Below, in pieces: positions 1 through 64,000 of a stretch of 64,000 bases of DNA. The DNA is from Moniliella sp. 'wahieum' (taxonomy: Eukaryota). The notes beneath the pieces were generated by a model, which saw nothing but the letters and a program-made list of their open reading frames with translations, ran no database searches and was not told the DNA's origin. The DNA lies in contig RSEE01000019.1 of the NCBI GenBank assembly GCA_003971905.1, forward strand, positions 372,001 through 436,000. Reading direction: 5' to 3'. The number at the start of each line of letters is the position of its first letter. Within the stretch, counting starts at the first letter, position 1. The translations under genes and the position numbers were made by a program.

Positions 1-721
1 CAGCAACCCACGTCTGCAGGCATTGAAGTTAGTCCTATAATAACCAATGAAGAATATGAGGCGAGCATACCTTGTTTGCATCCAAGAACGACCGGTAACC
101 CTGGGGGCTCGCATTGGCAGACGCCATCAAGTTCTGATAATGAGTCTCCATTCTAGTCTCGATGCGTTCCATACGATCGTTCATGTGGTTGACAGCCCCT
201 ACGAGCATACGCAACGTCGTCACAATCTGGTCGGTATTAGACCCTTCCTGTAAATCTCCCTCGTTGAAGAGGGAAGGGACGGCTGGAAATGATCCTTCCC
301 GTTGGGCCCTGGGCATCGTATCATCGCCGTTGTCGAGCAAAGTGTCGATAGTTGGAAACATCTCGCCGAAAGTGCTCATCGCGCTGTTCCCATCGTTTTC
401 GGTATCAGGAGCCGGAGTTTCCCCCTCCGTTACGGCCTCCTGGGTCATATCATCATCCACGTCGATGTTTCCTGTGGTGGTCATGTCCAAGGCATTGTTT
501 GCATCCTCGCCATGGTACTGGGCTTGGGTTAGAATAACATTATTCTCAGAGGGAGCTGTCCCTTGCTGCGACAGTGTTGTCGGCCGCGCCTGGCGTGTCG
601 CCCTCGCAGCAGAAAGCGCTGATCCAGGACGGACAGAAGGTGTGCCCGCCCCTGCCAACGAGGTGCGGCGCCGGAGAGGAATCCGACTGGGGGTTCCTCT
701 TCTGACAATTGGAGGGGCCAT
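1..721 (-). CDS. Hypothetical protein, probable accessory gene of the transposon (partial)
   Basis: ORF MAPPIVRRG... with a low-complexity/acidic region and a short coiled-coil-like stretch. Intron GTATGC...CTAAC...CAG at ~70-15. Runs off the window. Confidence 0.5.
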
Positions 722-793
722 TGTCGGTACAGTTGGTAAGCTGTATAAGCACAACGGTGTTGGTTGGGAAGGAAGTTGTAATGCGCTTATACA

Positions 794-1223
794 CAAGGAG
801 GACCACCGGGCCTACGGCCCGGTCAGCTGGGGCTTCGCTCCAGCTTGATGCTGCGTCGCCACCTTAGCACCTTTTCCACTTCGCCACCGTAGCCACCGTT
901 CCACGGTCGCCAACACCGACATAGAGAAAATATAACCGATGCTTGCTGGCTGCAGGGGGCGTGGAAGGTGGCACGGGGCAGCTGATGTTAAAAGTGCACA
1001 GGGCGAATCGAGGGATAATATAGGACCGGATGGTGAGAACCGGAGGGTCCTGATATCCTGGCGATCCCTCTGGTTCCTTAACCTTGGTGGCGCATCCAAC
1101 AAGCAACCCCCGCAAGATGAACGGTTATTAGGTTTAGACGCAGGGTTCCCCCTGTCCCAGCCTTACGCTCTGTCAATGAAATAGACGCGATCTAGGGATA
1201 TTGTGAGAAGAGCCGCATCAGTA
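794..1223 (-). mobile_element. Short non-autonomous Helitron-like element, copy A, interrupted by a CRE fragment
   Basis: The minus strand ends with two GC hairpins then GGTCCTC-CTTG|T. Homologous to 45517-45566 plus 47368-47633, on both sides of the CRE insert. Confidence 0.6.
1023..1188 (+). mobile_element. 5'-truncated 3' end of a CRE-like non-LTR retrotransposon
   Basis: Matches the 3' ~160 bp of the 45567-47367 element (ccggagggtcctgatatcctggcgatcc...cccctgtcccagcctta). Degenerate TSD: gaatcgagggataatata (1005-1022) vs gatctagggatattgtg (1189-1205). Confidence 0.85.
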
Positions 1224-1647
1224 TGGTCTGTGTGTTTCGACCAGGGTCTATCGCGCCCCGTGCAGTTCAAGGAGCTCCGATGTTGTAACCATTAATTCAA
1301 TTTAACTTTTGCGTTTTCTTTTCCCAAGATGCATGATCTCCGCATCCCTAAGGTATAGCCTCTGTTGCTCTTTTTGATGCATCCTTGTATTAGGCGTGTC
1401 GTTGGCTGGTGGCGTATTCGACCACCACGACCAACACTATAGTGCTATCGCATCACCCATTAGGGTGGCCATCTGGACTGCCACTCTCATCAGATAGGGG
1501 ATCACGAATGTAATACGCCTTGGAAGAGCATCAAAAAGAAGCGGGAGAGCGTGCGTCTCTGGTCTGTATGGGACAGGGGGGGCAAGGTTTAAGGTTGGAG
1601 GGCCGCGATTGTCTGTCGGGCCGGTGGCAAGAAAAGCACCCACACCC

Positions 1648-4600
1648 ATGCATCATGTACAACCCATCGCCCATCCTTACCAAGTCGCCACCGCCATGCT
1701 TCGACCTCGGCTCAGTGGTGCCGCCCGATGGAACAAGCTCGCACACGTGCACAATGGGACAGAAGCATCTGCTGTACCTGTTTCCTCGGCCTGGTCCACG
1801 GTGCAGCAGAACGGGAGGTTGCTGTTCCAGTGCCGTGCTTGCCCAGTTCGACCGATGACCCAGTTTGATGCACTCAAGCACGCGAAGGTGCGCAAGCACA
1901 TCCATAACGTGGTGCTGGGTGCGAGGATGGGGGCTAGTCACGCCCACGCCATTGACGAGGTGGCCGAAGATGCGAGCATGCCCCCCCAGCCACCTAACGC
2001 ACGCTCGCCTTCCCCTGCTTCCCGTGCCTCTTCACCTGTAGACACTACCATGGCCGAGGACGAGTTAGGCCAGACGCAGCCCAGTGTTTCCTTTGAACCG
2101 CCTTCAAGAGCCCACGGGCGTGTCCTTTGCCGCCCGTGGGCGCGTGACAACCCGCTCGGCGCCTCGAATGAGCGTGTCGAGCAAATCCGCAACCAAGAGA
2201 CTCTCGAGCACTTGCTTTTGGGCCAAGGTGATGATGTGATCGGCGACGAAGATGACTCGAACTGGACTGATGCCGAGGATGACCTCGACTGGGACAGGGA
2301 GATGATGGGCGCAGGGTCGAACGCCACGGCGCACGCAGCCGGATGCATTGCGTCTTCCGCCACACAGAGACGGCAGCATCACGGCTGGCGGCCCAAGCCT
2401 CATGCTGCTGAAGCAAGGATCAAGCTTCTGGAACGACTGGTGGCCAATCCCCCAGCGTCATGGCCTGCCGCAGGCGTCTTTGAGTCACCAATGGTACGTC
2501 ACATGTCACATTCTTGCTCTCTTGCTCGTTTGAGTGTGACTGGTGAGATTAACCTGCCAGCCGCAGATCTGGGCAGTTATGAACGTGTTCTATGGCTCGG
2601 TATTCTCCTTCTCAAGGCGCCAGGCCCGGGCAGCATTGCTCTTGATGCGGCTCGCCCGCTGCTTGCAGTGCGCCATACCTACATGGCACAAGGTGTCGCA
2701 AGTGCGGAGGAAACTCAACGGGCCGTTCACATCTGTTCCGAAGTATGTTGACTCTTCTCTGAGCGAGACGTACTTCAGTCCATTGGATGAGATCGCACGT
2801 CTGGCGTATGGCAACACCCGCTTGCGGAGCGTGATCGAGGACTTGCCAGTGAAGCGAGCTGTGGTGCGCAACGTATCAGATGGCCAACGTTTCTATAAGG
2901 TCATGTCACGACAGCCGACTGCTGTCAACAGCTGCGGGAGAGTATTTTGGTTGGACGAACCCGCGGCTGTGAAGAGGCAGAGACCTGACACACAACCTCC
3001 CCATCCCCAGCGGATCGTTCTTGTCCAAGGATGGCACATTGAAGCTGACTCAAACGCTCCTCGGCGTGTAATGGCCCGTGTGAGAGACATGGTTCTGGAT
3101 GATGGTGCTGGAGGCGCCGCTGGCATGATACGGCAAACATATCGTGTGTCCCCTACAGCTGAACAATCGGTTGTTCCACTCGACGATCTCACGCCCTTCA
3201 AGGAACAGGCCTACCGTCGCCTGTCATTTCGCGACCAGTCTGGTGACGTTGTGGCGCAGAACTCGCTCCGCGCCATGTCTAAGGAGCATGGTGCCGACCG
3301 CGTTATCTTTGCACCCATGATGGCTTGGTGCGACGACGCGCGCGTTTTCAGCCACAGCCGGCAGCGTGCGGGTGCAACAGTCATCTACCTGTCCTGGGCC
3401 GGTCTTCCTCAAAGCCACCTGTTCGCGGATGAGGGTACGAGTTTGTTCATGGTCAAGCTGGGAACTGATGAAGTGCGCGCGTTTGAGGCCCTTGTGCGCC
3501 AGGTCCAGTATGTCTTTGTTACTAAGCTATCTTATATATATGTCACCGCTGACTGGCATTTCTGCTCAGGATATGGGGAAAGACAGGCATCAAGGGGGCC
3601 GACGGAATATCAGGCCGCCCGATTGTCCTCATCCCCCTTGTTCATGCTGTGGTAGCGGACAACCCAGCGGGAAACCACCTTGCTGCCCGTGCCCTCAGTC
3701 CTAGCCCCCTGTGCTGCCGTATTTGCGGGGCCAATTTCCAGAACCGCGGCCATGCTGACCAAATTCTGCATGTGCTCACAGGAGGTGTGAAGCGAAGCAA
3801 TAAGCAGATCCAAGCGAACCTCGAGAGGCAGGTGGATCACGCTATCCTGGGCAATAACGCTGCATACGACCGGGAACGCGCCGCGACGGGCGACAGGGAC
3901 CCCAACGTCCACCGACTCTGCTGCTCCTGTGTCGCCGACATGGACATGTTCGAGAATAAGGGTGAGAAGCAGCCCATTCACACTCGCCCGTCCCGGAAGG
4001 GATTTGCTTTGCCTAAGACAAGGGCTAGGGTCATTGAGCTGAACCAATCCGAGGCGGACGATCTGCGACGGAAGAGTTTCTTGATGTGCCCGGCGCTGTC
4101 CCTGCCGCAGTTTGATGTGGCGGACTGCTTTCCCCTCGACTTTCTTCACACCTTCCTCCTCGGAATAGGGAAGGACCTGCTAAAGTTGGTGGCGACAAGG
4201 GTGAAGCCTAAGGCGAAGGAGCAATTGGCGATATTCATCAGCGGTCTCAACACGGAGGGTATCCCTGGCGCAGAGGGCACCAAGATCCGAGCTAAGGGTT
4301 TGATGGCTAACCTAAAGACTGGGGTTGGGAAAGATGTGCGCACTATGCTTGTGGCTCTCCCATTCGCGGCACTCCCTATCCTTGAGACCGGAAAAGAGGC
4401 CAACAATGAGAAGGAGTTCACGTTTCCGATTCCGCTTTATGATGCTATCGTCGCGGCAGCCGACCTGCATGGTTTGCTTTCCAGGACATGGTACCCGGCA
4501 GCCGGGCAGGCCAGGGCCCAGTTCATGGTACGTCCCACAGCCTTGATTGATATACGGGTTTAGACGCTGACATGCCTGTTATGGCTGGAACAGTACCGGG

Positions 4601-5867
4601 TGACCCAGACTGCATACCGACTGATCGAACGCCTTTCGAGACTCGGCCCCGACAGCGCCATGATCGCGACGCGACCGAAGCTCCATCTCCTCCTGGCGCA
4701 TACGTCTGATGCTCGCTCGTTGTCCCCTCTCCAGAACACGGACGCTGCCAGATTCGAGGGTCGCGTGAAGCACATCCGTGCGTCCGTTGCCCATTGCAAC
4801 TTCCAGAACCTCCCGCGTGACACCTTGTACAACGTCATGGTCGCCGAGAAGATTCTGCACCACTCTTCACCGGGGTATGATGTGTCTAGTGACGGCTCGG
4901 TGGTGGCTCGGCCTGGAGCTCCTCCCGGGTGCTGGAGCAAGGGAAGGAAGAGCCCGACTACGACTCTGATGGCATGGCGATTCCACGAGTGGTGCTGGCC
5001 CCAGCCAAGAACCAATCCTCGGTGGGTTGCAACAACCTCACCGACGAGGAGCTGGGTCGTTTCCAGTTGGCGGACCGTGTCAAGGTGCGGGCGCAGTACC
5101 TGGTGGGCAAGGCGGCTGTTATCGCTACAGGGGAGATGATCCGTGTGGGGATGAACGTGACGATCGGCCAGAAGTCGGCCGAGTACAGCGCGTCCGCCGA
5201 CTTTGTTATTGGCAAGATCCTCCGGATTGGGCGCGACCCGTTGGATGAGAAGGCTGCCTGGGTCGGGTACAGGCCGTACATCATCACGGGTAGCACGCAT
5301 CGCTCAGGCTGCCGCATTGTCCGCGAACTCGATGATGGTGATGCTCCAGAAGAGTTTGCCCTATTGATGGTGAGCACCGATGAGTGCTGAATCCGGCTGC
5401 GTGACAATTGCTCATCAAGTACTGACACTGGGACATTGTGACCACAGGATGTTGGCAGCGAGGCGCCTCTCCAGCACGCCTGCACCAAGAAGTGCATGAT
5501 AGAGCAAGACGGCGAGAAAATACTGGTGCACAACTACGAGAAGGACCCAGTCTCGGGGGAGAATGAGGCGATGGAGTACTTCATCCCGGCGGCTTCTCAT
5601 TTTAAAGCCAAGAATGGGAAGCGGCTGGTATTGAACGAATACGCTATGCGAAGTCCACCACACCACAAGCCGCACATGGACTTGAGGATCAGCTGGAAGT
5701 CCCCCGAACTGAGCGCCAACGCGCTGAGCAAAGACGTGGCCCAGAGGATTGCAACGAACGGTGCCATGCACCTGTGGGACAAGCGCGCCAAGAAGAAGAC
5801 ACCTGCCGTGGCCGCTGTCGGAGGAGGGGGCAACAGCGGCGACTCTTCGGACAGTGATAATGATTGA
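1648..5867 (+). CDS. CMC/EnSpm-like DDE transposase (multi-exon, frameshifted)
   Basis: N-terminal CxxC...H...H zinc finger, then WCDD, ADNP...CRIC, PLDFLHTFLLG, RPKLHLLLAH, RFEG and a C-terminal QHAC motif, as in basidiomycete CACTA-like transposases. GT-AG introns near 2494, 3508, 4528 and 5370. Confidence 0.7.
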
Positions 5868-11471: not shown

Positions 11472-12008
11472 CGTGATGGGGCCTGGAGCACTGGGAGGAT
11501 CAGGAATGGAGGTGGACCACACACTGCGCGACACGGGAACGCAAGAGGCGCAGAGCGCGTACCGGGGTGGTGCACGAGAGCACTGCGTCGCCTTTGGAAC
11601 GCCGGGAGAAGGAACTGCTTCGGCTGCTTGAACAAGCAGAATTCGACAAGAACGCCAAGTACCAGGGACGCACTCAAGAGCCGTTTTTCCCCCTGGTTTT
11701 GACGACGCGAGGATACTACGGCGCCAAGACAGCGGGCAAGCTGTTTGCGCATTGGAAGGATTTGGCTACTAAGTCTCAGTGGGAATGGTTCCTCGCTCGG
11801 ATGTCAACTACGTTCATCCGTGTCCACCAGCGCTTCCTAGGGTACGGGACCTAATGGCGAGAACCGGAGGGTCCTGATATCCTGGCGATCCCCCTGGTTC
11901 CTTGACCTTAGTGGCGCTTCCACAAGTAACCCCCGCAAGATGAACGGTTCGGTTTAGACGTAGCGTTCCCCCTGTCCCAGCCTTAAGCTCTGTCAATGAT
12001 ATGGATTC
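11472..12008 (+). mobile_element. 5'-truncated CRE-like retrotransposon (endonuclease C-terminus plus 3' UTR)
   Basis: Encodes ERREKELL...FPLVLTTRGYYG. Perfect 9-bp TSD GAAAGAAAG at 11463-11471 and 12009-12017. Confidence 0.9.
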
Positions 12009-12017
12009 GAAAGAAAG

Positions 12018-12230
12018 TGCGAGCACTGGACGGAATTAACTGATAAATCTCATTGTAGGTGTGGTTCGTATAGGTCACATGTCTACCACGCTCATTCGTC
12101 TCCACGAGGACTACAATGACGGGTTTGGAAGCGAATGGCGGGAGCCAGATGGATCCTGATTTAAGGGAGCCGGATAGGCGCAACGTTTCCTTGTCCCATC
12201 CTTACGCTCTGTAAAGGATGCTATGGATCC
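12018..12230 (+). mobile_element. Old, diverged CRE 3'-end relic
   Basis: Reads HWTELTDKS...MSTTLIRLH...EWREPDG vs HWKELATKS...MSTTFIRVH...GWREPEG in young copies. Tail gtcccatccttacgctctgt resembles the CRE 3' UTR. Confidence 0.75.
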
Positions 12231-12931
12231 TAAAGTAGGGCATTATGCTTGAGAAGAAGTTCTGCGTACTAGCTGTTTAGGGATGGGCTCTGCTGGACGG
12301 CCGCATACATATAATTTGTCATTGTTTGGCTCTGCAGTTAGCGTTACAGTTTGTATGAAGGACGTTGACTATGAACTGAGGAAAGTAGGAGGGTGGCTTC
12401 CATTGCCGAACGAAAGGTTTTTATTGTTTGTCCAGAGCTATATGATCCATCTGGTCAAGTTAACCTTAAGTGAATGATACTGATACACTCTATGGCATCG
12501 TCTTGTGCTGATATTTACCTACGTTCTGTGACTGGGTCAGGATCTTTTCCACCACAGACACCTGCAGCTCCACTAAGTATCTTTCGATGATCATAGCCCT
12601 TGGTATCTTCTTTTAGAGTGACTGCGCTTACGAGTCCAGGCCTAGGCTTGGACAATACCCGAGTGGGACCACAGTATACGAGCAGACGAACGATGGAAGC
12701 TGGGAAAGGAAGTGCATTTAGGTCAGACGTAGCTGCCTCATGGTTGGGATATAGAAACCATTGCCACAAAATAGAGTGGCATGATTGAGTGTGGTATGCT
12801 GAAGAATCTTATCCCGACTCCCTGCTCTTCTTTTGTCCCGCTGTCCTCTTTGTTCCCATTCCCTCTCCACCCACTATAGGTGGCATGCCGTATCGTGAAA
12901 TAAAGATGAACGTCAGGCATCGAATGTTAGC

Positions 12932-19197: not shown

Positions 19198-20610
19198 GGT
19201 GAGGACGCAGGAGGTGGTGGCGGGACACTTGAAGAGCCGCCAACAGGGGTGGTGGGGAAGGGCAAGAGCACAAATAAGTGACAGCAAAAGCTGCGGCACA
19301 GAACCAGACTGCTTTCCGGCGAGTTTCCTCCCACGTTCCAGGTCCCATATGCGCTCCCACTCTACATGTACAATTGCTACTAGTAGCTGGCTATAGCTGG
19401 CTGGCGCCTGTGTTGTTGGATTAAATTTTTCGCGTTGCCACTGCGTGACCTTCTGTTGCACGATCAGACTGTGCTGTACCCAGCTGGACCACAGCAGTGG
19501 GGATTGGTTGGCTCACTAGCCCACTCTACCAGCTCACTGCTGCTCACTGGAATAAGTGCGCTGACAGTCTGGCTGCCACAGGCGGTGCAGCGTTCGTACC
19601 TTGCGGTGCTGATTCTGGGGGCGATAGCCAACTCCGTTTTTAGGCGTTAGTTAGGGACAGCGTGGCCTGCCTAGCTCTTCACTCCCAGCCTTACATATGC
19701 AGAGACGCAAAGCAAACCAGTCAGGTCCTGAGCCTCAGGACTACTCGGCCTACCAGGAAATGCGGAATGAAAAAACTTCATGCTTCTCTCAGATCTCAGG
19801 CTAGTAAGTAACTCAGTAGCGGCTCTATGAAAGCCCTCTGTTGCTCAGCGCGACAAGGGAGGCCAGTGGGCTAGTGAGCTAGTGAGCTAGTGCTAGCGAG
19901 GCCTGAGGCTAGTGAGGGGATGGGTGAGTAGGGAGTGTGCTGACTATGGGTGGCTTATTATAGCGCTTACACTTGCTGGCTCTCGTTTTGCACCTCATCG
20001 ACGCCAATCATCAATCATCGCATGCATCGACTGCCATATGGGCTGCCATGGGCTGCCGCAGGTTGCGCAAGTGGCCAGTGGTTGCCCCCATCGCGCGTCG
20101 CGGTGACATGAATGGTGCATGATGCATGATGCATGATGCATGATGCATGACGTATGGTCCACGATGCGTGACGCGTGACGCGGACGAACCAGACACATGC
20201 GTGGCAATCAATGCACGCACAAATAAAGTCCCACAGGACAATGTGACATGCCTGTCCCACAGTACACGTGATGAATGTATTGCACGATGCATGAGATCGA
20301 GAGCACCATTGAGGTGTATGTGTCGCTGCAATCTCTTTGCCTTATCGATTGTCCTCCGCAACGGTAACGCGGTATCCGGTAACCGGTAACACCATCTTGC
20401 GCAACGTGCGCGAGCGTCTGTCACCGCACCGCTCTCACCTAAGCCGACGTCCCACCATTTAGATATTACAGCGCCACTTCAATCGCTAATTACTTACTGT
20501 TTTGTTCTCCCCCTCTTCCCCCCTTTTTAGGCACACCTCACTGATCTAATGTTGACTGGGAATCATGCAAAAACACATATATGCCGCCAACAGTAGCAAT
20601 ATAAAAAGAT

Positions 20611-20898
20611 ACGGCACCAAGACGGCGGGCAAGTTGTTTGCGCATTGGAAGGAGTTGGCTACTAAGTCTCAGTGGAAATGGTTCCTCGCTCGGATGTCAA
20701 CCACGTTCATCCGTGTCCACACGCGCTTCCTAGGGTACGGGACCGGATGGCGAGAGCCGGAGGGTCCTGATATCCTGGCGATCCCCCTGGTTCTTGACCT
20801 TAGTGGCGTTTCCAAGTAACCCCCGCAAGATGAACGGTTCGGTTTAGACGTAGCGTTCCCCCTGTCCCAGCCTTAAGCTCTGTCAATGATATGAATTC
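20611..20898 (+). mobile_element. 5'-truncated CRE-like retrotransposon 3' end
   Basis: Near-identical to 45567-45855 (minus strand). 7-bp TSD AAAAGAT at 20604-20610 and 20899-20905. Confidence 0.9.
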
Positions 20899-20984
20899 AA
20901 AAGATTGAAATGCCGCGGCATTCTCTCCGTCAAAAAGCTTCAAGGGAGGACGACGAGCAAAAAACGCGTTGAAGAGAAGAGGGA

Positions 20985-44489: not shown

Positions 44490-45566
44490 GGGCTACAGGG
44501 GGTAGGGGTTAAGAATGGGAAGTGGGAGGAAAGGGAGAGACGGTGGGCGTGAGGTGGTGGTGGTGGTGGCAGAGTGAGGCCGGGCTTGAATGGGCTCCGA
44601 CTGTGGGGCTATATAGGCCACAGCAGTCGTACACTCAAATGGAGCGGTTCCTATGTAGTAGACTAGACTGACCCTGGCATGGCCACGTTGGCTTGCAGCT
44701 TCATGCACAACCTTGTTTGTACAACTGCCTCGATTCTCTCTTTTCATCGTCACGTAGCACTCCCAGCGATTAGTGCCACACGTCTATATATTGGGACTCC
44801 CCTGGTTCCCCGACAGGGTCCCCCCCCTGGGCACGGAAATCCGGCGCAATCATTAGTCCATCTCTGTCGATCATCGATCATCTGACAGCCTCTCTGCTTT
44901 TGGGAGTTGCGCTTATGGCACCGGGATCATCGATCGACCTAACCGGATGGAGCAAATGCGTGGTCGTTAATCGATGATTGTTGCTCCGCGATCAGCACTT
45001 CGTTACTCCGTCTTCGGAGTACTGTGGGAGGCGGGCAAGGCAGGGCAGGAAGTGGTGGGATGCAATGGTCTTTGAATCGACAACCCCGCCCAGAATGCTG
45101 CCAGCGGGTGTTCTGTATAGGGAGCGGTGAACTACCAGTAGCCGATACTCCGTAAATACATATGGTCTGTCATTCAAACCAAGTCCCCACATGTCTTCTG
45201 TTTTGACACTCAACGTACTCAACCTCATATGGGGGGCGCCAGTTGGCAGCAATCGCCGATGGAAGAGCGAGTGAACCGCGTCTTGTACATGTTCCTACCA
45301 GTTGTTTTGCAAACACTATGAATCCACAATGCAATGAAGTAATACAACTAACTGCAGTGCAGATAGCACTCAGTCAACCTTTGCTGTTCATAAAGCTTCC
45401 GAAGCTTCCAGCAAGACTTACCCCTTTTCCCAGGTGAAAGCTGTCAGCGCGTAAGCAGATCTGACAAATCACGTTCCTTCCACACTCTGTTATCCGACTC
45501 TCCCTTATGTTCTGCCTCTGACGGGCTCCTCTTCTGGAATACATCCACCATCATCCTGCTCCCTTT

Positions 45567-47367
45567 GAATTCATATCATTGACAGAGCTTAAGGCTGGGA
45601 CAGGGGGAACGCTACGTCTAAACCGAACCGTTCATCTTGCGGGGTTACTTGGAAGCGCCACTAAGGTCAAGGAACCAGGGGGATCGCCAGGATATCAGGA
45701 CCCTCCGGCTCTCGCCATCCGGTCCCGTACCCTAGGAAGCGCGTGTGGACACGGATGAACGTGGTTGACATCCGAGCGAGGAACCATTTCCACTGAGACT
45801 TAGTAGCCAACTCCTTCCAATGTGCAAACAACTTGCCCGCCGTCTTGGTGCCGTAGTATCCTCGCGTCGTCAGAACCAGGGGGAAAAACGGCTCTTGAGT
45901 GCGTCCCTGGTACTTGGCGTTCTTGTCGCATTCTGCTTGTTCAAGCAGCCGAAGCAGTTCCTTCTCCGGCGTTCCAAAGGCGACGCAGTGCTCTCATGCA
46001 CCACCCCCGGTACGCGCTCTGCGCCTCCTGCGATCCCGTGTCGCGCAGCGTGTGGTCTACCTCCATTCCGGTTCCTCCCAGTGCTCCGGGCCCCATCACA
46101 CGGTAATCGGTGCGCTGTGCCTTCCGTCCGCGCCTCGTCCCATCCTCTTCCTCCACCATAGGTTCGTTGTGGACGTGGGTGTCGGGGATGGCGGAGGAGC
46201 TGGAGAATGGGCTCCCGCACTGCCTCATGCAACGCACCAAACTTGGCCTGGGTGCGGGTGCAGGACATGATGTGTTCCAGCGAGGACATGACGCCACACT
46301 TGCACATGCTGCGCGTGGTGCGGCACAGCGTGCGGAGCTGGGACCAACCGGACCTGCTGGTCAGAGAGCTTGAGGTACGGGACGGATGGAATGGCGGAGA
46401 GCCAGTTGTGGCTCAGCGGGTTGCTGTGTCAACCACATGGCGACCGTCGGCATCGTCCAGCTTCTGGAGCAGCTCCTGTCGACTTTGCTCCCACATCTCG
46501 CAGCGCTGGCGTTGCTTCGTAAATGCGTTGGCCCTTGCCGTTTGCGGTCCCGACGGTCAACATAAGTGGTAATAAGATAGTCGTTGACCTCGTTGGCCGC
46601 GGCACGGGCGTGGGGCGCGATATACGAGTAAAGCGGGCTGCCACATCCTCCCAGCCGAAGAGGCAGGCTCATGAGCATGTCGAAGTGGTCGTCCTTGGCA
46701 CCTTGGGGATCCTCGTCGCCCCGGATCCGTCTGAACTCCGTACAGATGAAGGCATCAATCTCGGCCAGCACGTCGTCTAGCTCTCCTTCCATCTGCATGG
46801 TGCGGAGCAGGTGGCGCAGCTTGGTCTGGGTGCTGAGCCGCCATAGTAAGAGGCGTCCCTGGCGGGTGATGCCATCAAACTTAGGCATGTTCTCCCTCAG
46901 ACTGGCCAGTTGGGCCCGGAGCCACGATCGACGACAGTCTACCCCTCCCACACAAGTGCCCAGAACCTGCAGACCATCCTCCCGAATCTGGTCCCGGTCC
47001 CGCTCGACACACTTGCGCAGGTTGAGCTTGAGGCCTGACGCGTCGTCTTCCAAAATCTCCGCGGCTAAGCCGGTAATGCCTGGCCCTGGACCGAAGATCG
47101 TAATGTCGTCCAGGTATGCCATCACTAGGTGCCCCGGCGGCAAAGCATCTCTCAACTTCTCTAGCGTGGGCCGCACTGCAATGGAGAAGAAAAAGGGGGC
47201 GAGGGGGTCGCCTTGCCGCACGCCCTCTGCCGACAGGACGTTGGTCTCATTTCCGCCCGACGCGACCCGAGCTGGGTGGGGGAACCATAGATCCATCGGC
47301 CCAAGGCGAGGAGATGGGGGGCGTAGGCATGGAGCGCCTTGGCGAGTGTGCGACGTATATCGCAGAC
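45567..47367 (-). mobile_element. 5'-truncated CRE-clade non-LTR retrotransposon (RT plus restriction-like endonuclease)
   Basis: RT motifs W.YGSP, GVRQGDPLAPFFF, AYLDD, GLKLN..K, VLGTCVG, SLPLRLGGCG. CKCG...EHIMSC zinc knuckle and RTDY...E.D endonuclease. Ends ATGAATTC. TSD CCCTTT at 45561-45566 and 47368-47373. Confidence 0.9.
45667..47360 (-). pseudogene. Truncated, frameshifted RT-endonuclease ORF
   Basis: Starts just after the expected DxxNAFN motif. Stop after ...DILAIPLVP. Confidence 0.85.
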
Positions 47368-47802
47368 CCCTTTTTTCTTTACGTCATGCTTACCTATTTG
47401 TTGCGGGGCGGAATGCGCACCCCACCCCCGCGTGCTCAGCCATGCACATGGGTGATAAAATTCCTCCAGCGTGGAATGGAGGCTACGATGGCGACGGTGG
47501 ACCGGTGGCTAAGGTGACGATGGGGGGGAACGGTGGCTACGGTGGCGAAGGCGGACCGGTGGCTAAGGTGGCGACGCAGCACAGCTGGGGCGAAGCCCCA
47601 GCTGACCGGGCCGTAGGCCCGGTGGTCTTCTAGTGGAACTAAAAGATAGGGAAAAGAAAAGCAATCCCATCGTAAATCAACGCATGAGAGGGAGACACAC
47701 AAAGGGGTCGCGGAAGATCTAGAACAGGGTCATACGCACAGCCGGTGGGTACGTGTGTGGACCCGTCAACCAAGCTGGCTGCATGATAGTTGTGCCCCAT
47801 AC

Positions 47803-49145
47803 TCATTCGTCTTCATCATAACCCGCCTCCTCCTCCTCTTCCAGAACATCCTCATCGTCTGCACCTTGGCCATAGTCCTCATCGTCATCGCTGGGAGGAG
47901 GTGTTGGAGGAGGATAGACCATATCGTTGAGGATAGAGTTTAGCGGCTCCATCACCCTGAAGGTCTCGATCAAGCGGTCGATAAAGTCAGTTGCGAGGAC
48001 TTCCTGATCCGTAAAATTGCGCTTCACCAGGAATGAACGGAGGCGAAGCCATGCAATGTCCTTGTGCTCCTTGATGTTCGGTACCCCCTCGATTTTGGGA
48101 GCCACCTTAAGTTCGTCTTCAAATCCGAACAAGTTTTGTGCTTCCGCTTGGCTCTGCCTGGTTGTGACAATTGTATCTTTTTGGCCTGCCTTCCTTTTTT
48201 GTCCGTCGTGTTCTTAGCTGCGGCAACAGGAGGAGACGCTTTACCAAATGGGCCTCAAACTCAGGGTAGAGACCTGTGGACGAAGGTTAGAGGGAATTCA
48301 CATCAGGAGGAAGTGGGGGGGGAGGAGCGGGAATGGTGGGCAACATACCACCTGCTTTAGTCGCTGGCCAGCTCTGTATTGTCCAAAATGTGCTGTCGGA
48401 TAGTGGCGAGATGGTTCTTGTTGGGTTGCCATCGTCCACCCGCTGCAAACGACGGTTGCCTGGCTCTAGCTGAACATGGTACGCAGCAATTCTCCCTTGC
48501 GCCCACCCCGACTGAAAGTAGCGCACAAGTTGGTCTTATAGGGTACTTGCGACTTGGAGAAACGAATATCCCGGTAGATGCGGTATACCATATCCCGGGC
48601 TGGCAGCCAGGGCACCGTATCGTCAATGTCCATCAAACGAGGAAGCACTGCCATCGTAAATGCCTGGAGGTTTGTCCCATGCGTATTGGTACAGCTCCTT
48701 GTTCGCTGCAAACCACTCTCTCGAGTTCTTCTCGTCATCTTGAAGCTCCCGAAGAAAGTTCATGAGAGTTGGGCTGATTTGGTCCGGGGGAGGGGGTTTG
48801 GTAGGTGCCCGAGCCAGTTGACCACCCTTTGCCCGGGACGTGGACGGTCGCCCCTAGGCTGGATCTTCTGACGTTTTCGTGTGGAGTGAGAAGTTTGATC
48901 GCTAGATGATGCTCCCCCTTCATCGAGGTCCTTCTCTCCCTTCCTCCTTTCGTCTTCTTCCTTCTCCGAAGCGTGGAACGCATCCGAATCGTCTTCGTCT
49001 TCCGAAGCCGCTCGGTGATGCCGCCTCGACGCGACTGGCGGGTGTGTCAGACTCAGACTCGTCAGTCTCCTCCTTATAGGAAACACGGGCCTTGCGACGC
49101 GTAGGAATGGCGGTTAGGAGTTGCTGTAGCGCGACGGGGAGGCAT
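47803..49145 (-). CDS. DUF2461 (TIGR02453-like) protein
   Basis: MVYRIYRDIRFSKSQVPYK, ELKVAPK, IAWLRLRSF, acidic N- and C-terminal tails. Confidence 0.8.
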
Positions 49146-60621: not shown

Positions 60622-61889
60622 TTCGCTCCCAACCCAACCTTTTCTCCCTGGCTCTCGTCGAGGCCTCTCGTCCTGGTCTCCTTCCCTCTTGACTTTTTCT
60701 TACCCACTTTGCACTTGGTCCCCCATCCTCTCTCCTCCCCACCTAGCTTAATTTTGTCCCACCTTGCCCCGTCCATCCGTTTTGTCTGCCCCAGTCGGGG
60801 AGGAGAGAGGATGGGCTTTGTTACGCTGTTCAAGGCACTCCCCACTGGCTCGCTAGGATTCCCAGCCTGGCCAATTTCCGATCGCACATCCACAATCCAA
60901 GGACGTTGGTTTTATTGGTTGTTCCCATCCGTAGCCGGGTCGGATCGCCGGCTTTCGCCCCTCCTCCTCTCTTTCACAGATCTTGTAGCCCCAAAGATGG
61001 CAGTACGCGCTGCCCTCCTTTGACAGCGGCAGGCGCCCATACGCCCTCACTCGTCTTAGGCCTTCATTCGCATGCGACAGGCGGTCGGCTGGATCCCCAG
61101 CGTGTTCAAGGTTCAAGGTTCAAGGGCTTCACCCATTTCGAAATCAGAGGTCTGGCTGGGCGGGTGCCCTGTGGCGCAAAGAGCGCGAGAGAAGGCTGGT
61201 GGGTCTTGTCATCCAAGCGGAGTGGGGGGTTCACCTCTTCGGAGATGCAAGAACCGCAGGATGCACCTGGTCCCACAGAGCGCGCCCAGCAGGCTTGGCC
61301 ATATCTTGCGGATCAGATAGGCAATCGTTTGCCTCGATTCAGGAACTTGAGTCGCAATGGCCAAACCGAGGACTCGAGGGAAGCCATTGCCCTAGTAGCT
61401 ACTAGGCATATAGGAGTTTCACTTGTTGGAAGCAGTTGAACGACGGCGGCTCTTGGTACAAGGCGACAGATGCTTCTTGGTGCCATGTCAGGAAGGGGTG
61501 CGCAGAGCTGCTGCGACTGCCGCCCGCGCGTATGTGCACGTTTGCAGGGTGATGTGGGTTCCACGTTCCTGCCTACTATACAGTGTACACTTGGCATGCG
61601 ATACAACTTCTGGTGGGTTGGTGGACGGGTGTAAGACCAGAGGAACCCAAGGAGTTGGGTGATGAACCTCTGTGGTAATCAAAGCAATGCAATCGCGATG
61701 GTGGTGGTTAAGGTCTAGGCCTTAGATCTAAGCCTTATGCCACACCTAGAGGAGACAGGGGTTCAAACAAGCCTGAGTGTACAGTGGAGGCTTCGGAGGT
61801 CAAACAAGGGGCAAAGGGTGATAATCGATAAGGTGCCTTGGCCTATGTACGGGACTGCGAGTCCCCACAACGGGAGACAAGCTCGTTGC

Positions 61890-62385
61890 AGTCATAGTAT
61901 CATTTACAGATGAGCGTAACAAGGCTGGGACCCAGGAGGTCTGTGCTTAAACCGTCCCCCTCTGGCATCTGGCGTGTGCTGCTTATTGTTGGCGTCAAAC
62001 CCGTTTAGGAAACAGGGAGCCGCCAGCAATAAGTCACAGAACACTAGGGTGGCGCGCTTGGATACGAATGAGCGGGGCAGGCGTCCAAGCGGTGAACCGT
62101 ATCTCCCATGATGATACTCTCATCAGTTAATTCTTTCCAATGCATTGTAACCTCGCGTCGTCATAACCAGGGGGAAAGATGTTGGTTGAGTCGTGAGCGC
62201 GGCCCTTGCACTTGAGGTTCTTGTCGCATTCTGCTTTTGATCCATCAATCGAAGCAGATCCTTCTCCCGGCGTTCCGAAGGCGTTGCGGCAACAGTGCCC
62301 TCGTTAGTAGCGCAACCACCCTCCGATACGCAAACATCGCCTCCCGTAGTGCCACCGAGCCCCGTACCGTTCAACTGGGGCCGGT
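61890..62385 (-). mobile_element. Old, degenerate CRE 3' relic
   Basis: ERREKDLLRL...QNATRT...FPLVMTTRGY, and tail gtcccagccttgttacgctcatctgtaaatgatactatga resembling the CRE 3' UTR. Confidence 0.8.
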
Positions 62386-64000
62386 CAAGCTTCAAGCTCC
62401 ACTGGTGCAGTACAGTTTTCGCAGCCCATGGAAAGTAGGCCCGCTAAGGCCGATATGGAGCAAGCAAAAACTACGCCTCTCAAACCAAGACCCCACCCTC
62501 TACAGCTCATTAAGCTCATTGACGGCCAAGTCGATCACCGGGTTGACCCCGATGCCCCTGTGAGGTGACGCATAAAAGCGTAACGCGTAGAGAATGCAGG
62601 CATCAGTATGTGTGGATGGTAGATGGTGAGTGACTAGTGACTAGTGAGCTCTGCGCAATGGCCGACACGTATTGCCCGATATCACTCCCCAGGACGTTGT
62701 TGCCATAGAGCGGGGACAAGATGCAGCAGGAGGGAATAGGGGAAATCACCGACAATCGAGATGCTCGTCTGGGATCGCTGGTGTGTGCCCAGCGCCCATC
62801 GCCGATGGGTTGGCACCCAAACCGCGCGGGCTTTTCTCCCACGGTCTCATTGCCATCATGCATCAGTCATCGAAATCATCGCGTCAGCGCGTCAGTGCTC
62901 AGCGTCATCGATCACTGGTTTTTCCGTCCCACACAGCGTTCCCAACCCCCGCCGGCAGATCACCGACATGATGATCAAACGTCCTGCATCCTGTGCCATG
63001 TGCGGGCCAATGCGCGTGGGGACGTGTTGGGCGCGCCGGGGAGGATGGGACGGTGGAACGGTGGAAGGGCAGGATGGAACGTGGATGCAGGATGGGGCGG
63101 GTGCGGGCGGGTGGCAGGGGAGGCCCCAGCAGCCAGCGTATTTCCGCACATGGAGATGGTGTGGGGCATGCCAGTCGCACATGGCAGCACAAAAGGCGCC
63201 GCAGCGCTCGCGTGCGTTCTAAGGGCGGCGGGTGACCGGTGAAGGCCTGCGGGGGTAAGCGGTAACCGGTGAGGCTCACCCCTCTGCTTGGGGCCAAGGG
63301 GTGGAGGAGGGCAGGGGGTTCTGCTGTGGAGGATCTGCGCGGGGGGCTGATGCATGGGGTGTGCATGTGATTCATGGGATGTGTGATGCATGGATGCATG
63401 GATGCATGGATGCATGGATGCTGGGCTGGGCCGCGGGTGGGCCGCATTGGATATTGGCCAGGCCAGTGGTTGGTGTGGCTGGCCATTGGGCATGCAAGCC
63501 AGTGCGAGCGACGCGTGCGCCTGGCTCCCGGTTGGTGTTGGCAGCGTGCTTCGCTGGTCGCATCGGGCGGACGCAGGGCACGGGGGCTGTGTGCGGCTGC
63601 GGCTGGCGCCAGCGGGACAAGCCGGGCCAGGGCGCGGGGGGGACAGCATCGGCCGCAGTGGCGCTGTGCCTGCGGCTGGGGCGCATGGGATGCGTCAGCG
63701 CTCCAGAGCTTCCGCTGCAGCCGCAGATGCATCTGGGCAGCGGGCGCTGCGGGGCGGCGAATTACTAGTCACTAGTCACTCGTCACTCACACTCCAGCAT
63801 TCGGTTGAATAGTTGAATTGAGACGTTGAGCAAGCACGCCCAGCACACGTGCCACGAGCCAAGCGGGCCTTATCTGCCCCGCTGTTTTTATTGGTGCGGT
63901 CGAGCCCCTAACCCTCCCCTCCTCCCTTCTCCCCTCCACCCTCCACCCCACCCCCCTCCCCCCACCCAGCTATGGCCATCATACGCACCGCCACAGCCTA

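Follow-up and report, generated by a model that had tools for sequence, protein, structure and literature searches.

The stretch analyzed here, hereafter the window, comprises 64,000 nucleotides of Moniliella sp. 'wahieum' (contig RSEE01000019.1 of assembly GCA_003971905.1, positions 372,001 to 436,000) and is a gene-dense piece of a fungal genome with a GC content of 51 to 67% (2-kb windows). We scanned 105 of its open reading frames (ORFs) with Pfam (15 of the 44 of at least 200 aa and 90 of the 193 of at least 110 aa) and found housekeeping domains, namely Arp3/actin, septin, STT3, EF-Tu-type GTPase, importin-alpha repeats, ribosomal proteins, and ENTH. The Arp3 fragment is 70 to 72% identical to basidiomycete proteins in a search limited to proteins of at least 451 aa. 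Two places in the window share one layout: a short module that opens with hairpins is followed directly, in the same orientation, by the 3' part of a retrotransposon. They are locus 1 (module 798 to 1022 plus retroelement copy B) and locus 2 (module 47356 to 47630 plus copy A; Table 1). A sequence-only reading of this DNA had taken both for a short host element split by one retrotransposon that favors this target. We confirm this layout, but of the split host element only one half stands; what was observed is confirmed in part, and the interpretation drawn from it has partial support but is unproven. Counts of copies and modules below refer to the window, plus the contigs of one public sequencing run (X1).

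The retroelement is a retrotransposon without long terminal repeats (non-LTR) and with a restriction-like endonuclease (RLE), an identity that the sequence-only reading had also proposed; it used the label CRE, and our assignment stops at the RLE type. The assignment follows from the reverse transcriptase (RT) domain, a CCHC motif with conserved Asp and Lys, matches to R2 structures, and an alignment with the C terminus of relatives. A minus-strand frame at 46361 to 47383 contains PF00078 (RVT_1) at an E value of 1.2e-8, above the curated cut-off. The closest protein relatives are about 1,100 aa long, with a top identity of 44% among longer proteins and 40% among those of similar length; RT domains compared alone are 37 to 42% identical between the window element and the relatives of about 1,100 aa. 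These searches yielded no full-length copy of the same family. In an alignment of 11 relatives, C932, C935, H943, C947, D991, and K1066 are invariant C-terminal to the RT domain; a Cys/His finger at the start of the relatives' N termini is common, and R2 proteins are their top solved-structure matches. Copy A aligns with the relatives' C terminus (residues 989 to 1011 and 1043 to 1128 of P0001), and Cys/His and D..D..T motifs are seen in reading frames of the window copy.

Self-comparison of the window reveals one family of four copies (A to D) that share a 3' end and differ in their 5' truncation points, together with two diverged relatives (E and F); the 3' end is common to all six fragments. 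Copy A is 98.6% identical to D and 94.6% identical to C. That the same retroelement lies at both loci, about 165 bp of it at one and about 1.8 kb at the other, had been claimed earlier and is borne out by 88% identity between A and B over 160 nt. X1, labelled a food metagenome, was the only run with part of this stretch (0.20 of the sampled words present). Contigs of this run have a depth of 96 near the retroelement 3' end that declines to about 5 by the RT region, a gradient that fits a 5'-truncating family. Two further runs (X2 and X3) gave low-complexity matches of 31 to 37 nt and nothing more, and exact-pattern scans for the hairpin core and the retroelement 3' end returned no matches in metagenome, genome, and viral contig collections.

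No poly(A) tail follows the retroelement. The last six bases are GAATTC in copies A (45567 to 45572) and D (20894 to 20899) and GGATTC in C (12001 to 12006), and purine-rich target sequence lies directly after the 3' end of all three; the target duplications of C and D are both purine-rich. These 3' ends suggest that A/G-rich nick sites are loosely preferred or that short A-tail microhomology plays a part. Copies C and F share an orientation and form a tandem arrangement, with F only about 50 nt downstream.

The module, 225 to 275 bp long, lies directly 5' of copies A and B. It begins with two adjacent perfect GC-rich hairpins, with stems of 10 and 8 bp and loops of 3 nt. Folded as DNA, the hairpins of locus 2 reach a z score of -5.4 (0 of 200 shuffles fold as well), and those of locus 1 reach -2.75 and -3.55 on the two strands. 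A 54-nt unit is present in two copies at locus 2 and in one at locus 1, and a purine run in the locus-2 module adjoins the junction. The first 104 to 106 nt of the modules are 89.6% identical between the loci (E value of 1e-33). The rest is about 55 to 60% alike up to the junction, at a score reached by 10 of 2,000 shuffles and 8 of 4,000 genomic controls. Over 104 bp the modules are strongly homologous; from there to the retroelement junction the homology is weak yet significant, and past the junction none is detected. High conservation at the hairpin end and lower conservation elsewhere fit a transposon family with constrained termini. A search of the window with nhmmer and sensitive blastn found no third module copy.

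Other identities for the module were considered and rejected. Within the window no Rfam family attains its gathering score (relaxed matches around the module have E values of 1.6 to 6.5) and no tRNA was found, which speaks against a small RNA gene. As a candidate protein, the antisense frame was compared with 1.84 billion representatives and returned two glycine-rich chance matches. Judged by eye, a hepatitis delta virus (HDV)-like ribozyme at the module 5' end is improbable, since the first hairpin consists simply of an 8-bp stem and a 3-nt loop. Beside the locus-1 module lies a 258-aa open frame on the minus strand (38 to 811) with no Pfam match; its 5' side ends inside the first hairpin, so that the composite may sit in the upstream region of a gene.

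In both window modules (2 of 2), the retroelement adjoins the same end of the module and points the same way. Our own arithmetic, based on six fragments in 64 kb, gives each module a chance of about 0.001 that a fragment's 5' end lands within a specified 20-nt interval in a specified orientation. That unrelated fragments were juxtaposed by chance, in favor of which stand the small number of loci (two) and the presence of six fragments of this element type in the window, is hardly credible in view of that shared end and orientation. The association between module and retroelement is not chance.

A third composite comes from X1, where one contig joins retroelement position 45704 to the module through the same 11 nt that adjoin copy A. 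It is a single contig at depth 2, with 30 letters on its shorter side. X1 depth is 1.7 to 2.6 over the module and 0 over the unique flanks (44641 to 45486 and 47884 to 48700), indicating a third breakpoint of the retroelement at this one module end; the composite probably comes from another locus or another strain. At the module end, the breakpoint is 47355 at locus 2; at locus 1 it corresponds to 45725, and in X1 it is 45704. Among the X1 contigs listed, none joins 45566 to 47374, as an empty site would; such contigs show presence, not absence.

The direct repeats around the retroelement copies bear on how the composites arose. At locus 1, an imperfect direct repeat of 15 to 17 nt abuts both ends of copy B (score of 19, P = 0.0011 in 25-nt windows; P = 0.0006 under other scoring). 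It surrounds the retroelement piece alone, as predicted for insertion into preexisting sequence. Its upstream copy resembles retroelement sequence just 5' of the truncation point of B, a likeness that may reflect microhomology of the kind found at the 5' junctions of truncated long interspersed nuclear element (LINE) copies. At locus 2, the right-hand copy of the CCCTTT repeat is set apart from the last certain retroelement base (47355) by 11 nt of uncertain origin. With the junction placed at 47355/47356, a 17-nt imperfect repeat abuts both ends of A at a P value of 0.012, obtained with a lenient scoring that was one of several tried. Neither composite is surrounded in its entirety by a repeat (P = 0.80 and 1.0 in 25-nt windows; P = 0.89 and 0.42 in 45-nt windows). 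Independent insertion is supported at locus 1 (P of about 0.001), with weak support at locus 2. Of the two target-site duplications named by the sequence-only reading, the degenerate one at locus 1 stands, whereas CCCTTT at locus 2 reaches only a P value of 0.13 alone. Its claim of independent insertions gains from the differing truncations, the locus-1 repeat, and the lack of a composite-wide repeat, and loses from the junction shared with X1 and the weak repeat at locus 2.

These repeats also bear on whether one ancestral composite was duplicated as DNA, with later deletions producing the different retroelement lengths. The retroelement parts (88%) and the hairpin parts of the modules (89.6%) are about equally diverged between the loci, in keeping with such a history. 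Against it, the 3' half of the module is far more diverged than both of its neighbors, the deletion must start exactly at the junction, the flanks are unrelated, and the locus-1 repeat is left unexplained. We consider a DNA duplication very unlikely.

Two kinds of evidence for the retroelement stop at 47355 and point to a locus-2 junction at 47355/47356. The longer X1 retroelement copy matches the window to that base and continues with 108 unlike letters, and protein homology to full-length relatives is traceable by tblastn to 47355 only. The 11 nt beyond (47356 to 47366) would then be either the end of the module or filler at the 5' junction; no other source for this segment was found in the window. 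The last well-aligned module anchor lies 56 nt from the junction at locus 2 and 48 nt from it at locus 1 (hand count), and module sequence on the 5' side reaches to or near the junction.

We favor two independent insertions at a favored site near the module end, with a probability of roughly 40%. A 5'-truncating RLE-type non-LTR retrotransposon would have inserted twice, independently, by target-primed reverse transcription, both times within the same few bases near one end of the module, with the hairpins at the other end. In general the retroelement would prefer purine-rich sites only loosely, as copies C and D show, and the module would offer a favored nick site. The module would continue past the insertion in a remainder that is short and too diverged to detect, and it may itself be mobile and Helitron-like; its association with the retroelement would reflect the preference of the endonuclease. 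In favor of this reading, truncation points and flanking repeats are not the same in the two insertions. Among the readings named here, independent insertion alone accounts both for the repeat at locus 1 and for composites that no duplication surrounds. The evidence suggests a favored landing site; two loci are too few for proof.

Several observations weigh against two insertions at a favored site. Two of the four family copies (C and D) lie outside modules with short perfect duplications, so that site specificity is at most a preference, and long, imperfect repeats are found at the modules, a peculiarity in the case of A, whose identity to D is 98.6%. None of the three modules (two in the window and one on the X1 contig) is empty; all three are joined to the retroelement. 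The X1 contig demands either a precisely repeated 5' junction or a deletion starting exactly at the junction, and it keeps a composite or chimeric origin alive. Junction-anchored module ends do match, in support of the favored reading, at P values of 0.005 to 0.009 with the locus-2 junction at 47355/47356, and do not match (P of about 0.5) with it at 47366/47367, but these values are drawn from eight combinations of length and junction position. On the far side of the retroelement, the alignment of left flanks by which the sequence-only reading had restored a host sequence (45517 to 45566 versus 1187 to 1223) is at chance level, its score being reached by 1,741 of 2,000 shuffles and 3,652 of 4,000 genomic controls. 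The sequence-only reading had itself named such a lack of significance as an outcome that would count against its claim. Anchored at the retroelement 3' end, the flank alignment gives P values of 0.08 to 0.32, and the best local match spans 16 columns (P = 0.12 to 0.18; 60 by 60 nt). The flank tests are low in power because the adjoining part of the module is itself only about 55 to 60% identical. What stands of the split host element is the homologous module on the 5' side; the other flank is not significant.

The composites could instead be chimeric retrocopies, in which the RT would copy part of the retroelement RNA and jump to the 3' end of a separate hairpin-headed module RNA, or in which a module-plus-tail unit would itself be retrotransposed. 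MINE of Magnaporthe, the rice blast fungus, consists of WEIRD fused to a 5'-truncated MGL LINE, and the window composites resemble MINE and U6-L1 chimeras in pairing a complete noncoding 5' partner in sense with LINE 3' parts that vary in length and in that no copy of the 5' partner was found alone, as described in the excerpt at hand (PMC2104539). The three composites combine a constant module end with differing retroelement breakpoints, the module 5' end is sharp and common at the hairpins, homology between the loci ends at the retroelement 3' end, and X1 covers the module and not the unique flanks. A chimeric origin would also explain why no empty copies are seen (0 of 3). MINE, in contrast to the window composites, is flanked as a whole by duplications of 10 to 20 bp in that excerpt (PMC2104539). 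This duplication around the whole chimera, which defines such retrocopies, is absent at both loci, and the repeat at locus 1 flanks only the retroelement piece (P of about 0.001). Module 3' halves that are about 55 to 60% alike would be unexpected for copies of one RNA, and the module has neither an Rfam match at gathering score nor a tRNA. We regard chimeric retrocopies as somewhat unlikely.

A further explanation makes the module the retroelement's own 5' untranslated region (UTR), built of hairpins and tandem monomers, and both loci internally deleted copies. In every case the module precedes the retroelement on its 5' side and in sense, its 54-nt unit occurs in one or two copies, and its depth in X1 is about 2 against about 5 for the RT region, in line with a 5'-truncation gradient. 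The relatives of about 1,100 aa sit on contigs of 3.5 to 4.7 kb, which leaves room for a short 5' UTR, and one full-length distant relative (L001; 32% identity) carries a tandem-repeat array of about 500 nt immediately before its start codon. Internal deletions should vary at both ends, however, and here one module endpoint meets differing breakpoints; the direct repeat at locus 1 is left unexplained, and no duplication flanks the composites. When the N termini of 23 relatives were compared with both modules, low-complexity matches were all that appeared. A 5' UTR origin is improbable.

The L001 sequence (1 to 5312) has features of its own. It belongs to an assembly titled as a cyanobacterium, and its first 130 nt or so are CCCTAA telomere repeats. 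An intact 1,132-aa RLE-type retrotransposon ORF, flanked on each side by tandem-repeat arrays, follows after roughly another 1.9 kb, and positions 300 to 350 hold short hairpins whose core is CCGTAGG. L001 looks like a eukaryotic chromosome end within a bacterial assembly.

The sequence-only reading had called the module Helitron-like. Helitrons have a 3' end with a subterminal hairpin and CTRR next to a host T, and they have a 5' TC end, insert between A and T without a duplication, and rely on a Rep/helicase partner. At locus 2, the hairpins on the plus strand end 6 nt before CTAG (47630 to 47633), which is followed by T, as at a Helitron 3' terminus. Locus 1, unlike such a terminus, has CTTG followed by T; the 5' TC end of the module is not established, the left-flank homology being not significant, and no Helitron, Rep, or helicase domain was found in the 105 window ORFs scanned with Pfam. 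The hairpins at both loci and CTAG at locus 2 speak for the name, and CTTG at locus 1 and the lack of a helicase in the scanned ORFs speak against it; based on the hairpins and on CTAG at one locus only, it is a guess from sequence. A variant of the favored reading would place the preferred nick site in a hairpin-terminated (Helitron-like) mini-element and have the composites then copied to new loci as a unit, which we find quite unlikely. In that case, the X1 contig, with the locus-2 junction and without the locus-2 flanks, would be one such copy.

Table 1. Coordinates of the retroelement copies, modules, repeats, and flanking segments in the window
Feature	Position	Strand	Remarks
Module, locus 1	798-1022	+	Hairpins 805-823 and 825-845; one tandem unit; last 17-19 nt = direct repeat (1003-1021)
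Copy B	1023-1186	+	3'-terminal ~164 nt of retroelement
Downstream copy of locus-1 repeat (target-site duplication)	1187-1202	+	Score 19, P = 0.0011; P = 0.0006
Copy C	11473-12011	+	Outside any module; perfect 9-nt duplication GAAAGAAAG, P = 0.003
Copy F, diverged relative	~12062-12252	+	~77% identical to A (ungapped columns)
Copy D	20610-20901	+	Outside any module; 5-6 nt duplication AAAAGA, P = 0.37 alone
Flank taken earlier as the host's other half	45517-45560		Homology to locus 1 not significant
Locus-2 repeat, 6 nt (CCCTTT on +)	45561-45566, second copy 47368-47373	-	P = 0.13 alone
Copy A	45567-47355 (possibly to 47366)	-	~1.8 kb; 5'-truncated within RT domain, 3'-complete, frameshifts
Junction segment, 11 nt	47356-47366	-	Unmatched in longer X1 copy; present in X1 module-retroelement contig
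Module, locus 2	47630-47367 (to 47356 if 11-nt segment included)	-	Hairpins 47582-47604 and 47605-47623
Tandem units, locus-2 module	47473-47574	-	Two 54-nt units (repeat family D4)
Copy E, diverged relative	~61881-62445	-	~78% identical to A (ungapped columns)

Elsewhere in the window, inverted repeats of 32 to 33 nt (62613 to 62647 and 63764 to 63800) are 79 to 84% complementary and made up of motifs like ACTAGTCACTAGT. Between them lies about 1.1 kb of GC-rich sequence with a GGATGCAT microsatellite, and the segment between 62613 and 63800 may be a small terminal-inverted-repeat element.

The usual targets of RLE-type elements are ribosomal DNA, spliced-leader genes, small nuclear RNA genes, and telomeres. 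The RLE clades are mostly target specific in the excerpt at hand, which also lists transposons among the targets of target-specific non-LTR elements (PMC4640811). The window element is like the target-specific RLE clades (CRE/SLACS, R2, R4, NeSL, and Utopia) in having an RT followed by CCHC and a PD-(D/E)xK-like domain, variable 5' junctions, and multicopy targets, to judge from the same excerpt (PMC4640811). Those clades have a precise 3' junction, whereas the two 3' junctions in the window lie about 6 nt apart in the module alignment; unlike theirs, half of the window family's copies lie elsewhere.

A LINE that lives in another transposon has been described before: Tx1 of Xenopus inserts into the DNA transposon Tx1D, as the portion of the source consulted reports (PMC4494074). 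In Xenopus laevis, Tx1 (Tx1L) lies repeatedly inside this nonautonomous transposon and forms composites, as the window element does with the module (PMC4494074, same portion). The target-specific elements of the Tx1 clade have an apurinic-type endonuclease, per Kojima and Jurka's grouping as excerpted, in contrast to the restriction-like one of the window element (PMC4640811). The specificity of the window element is, also unlike that of Tx1, at best partial (2 of 4 copies), and the nature of its target is a guess. The earlier statement that no such case was described does not hold, since Tx1 in Tx1D (PMC4494074) and the listed transposon targets (PMC4640811) precede it. For the narrower case of Helitron targeting by RLE-type non-LTR elements, a full-text literature search, judged by title and abstract, found no report.

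If confirmed, the favored reading would add to the retrotransposon-in-transposon cases already described; either way the advance is incremental, its basis being two loci and one contig. Were the composites chimeras, fungi would offer, beside MINE, a second case of retrocopies formed by template switching, in this instance through an RLE-type enzyme. Were they copied as units, the retrotransposon and a rolling-circle-type repeat would be mutual carriers. If the preference is true, the window holds a fungal RLE-type element whose favored target is another mobile repeat, and the module would provide a defined short target for studying how the endonuclease chooses its site.

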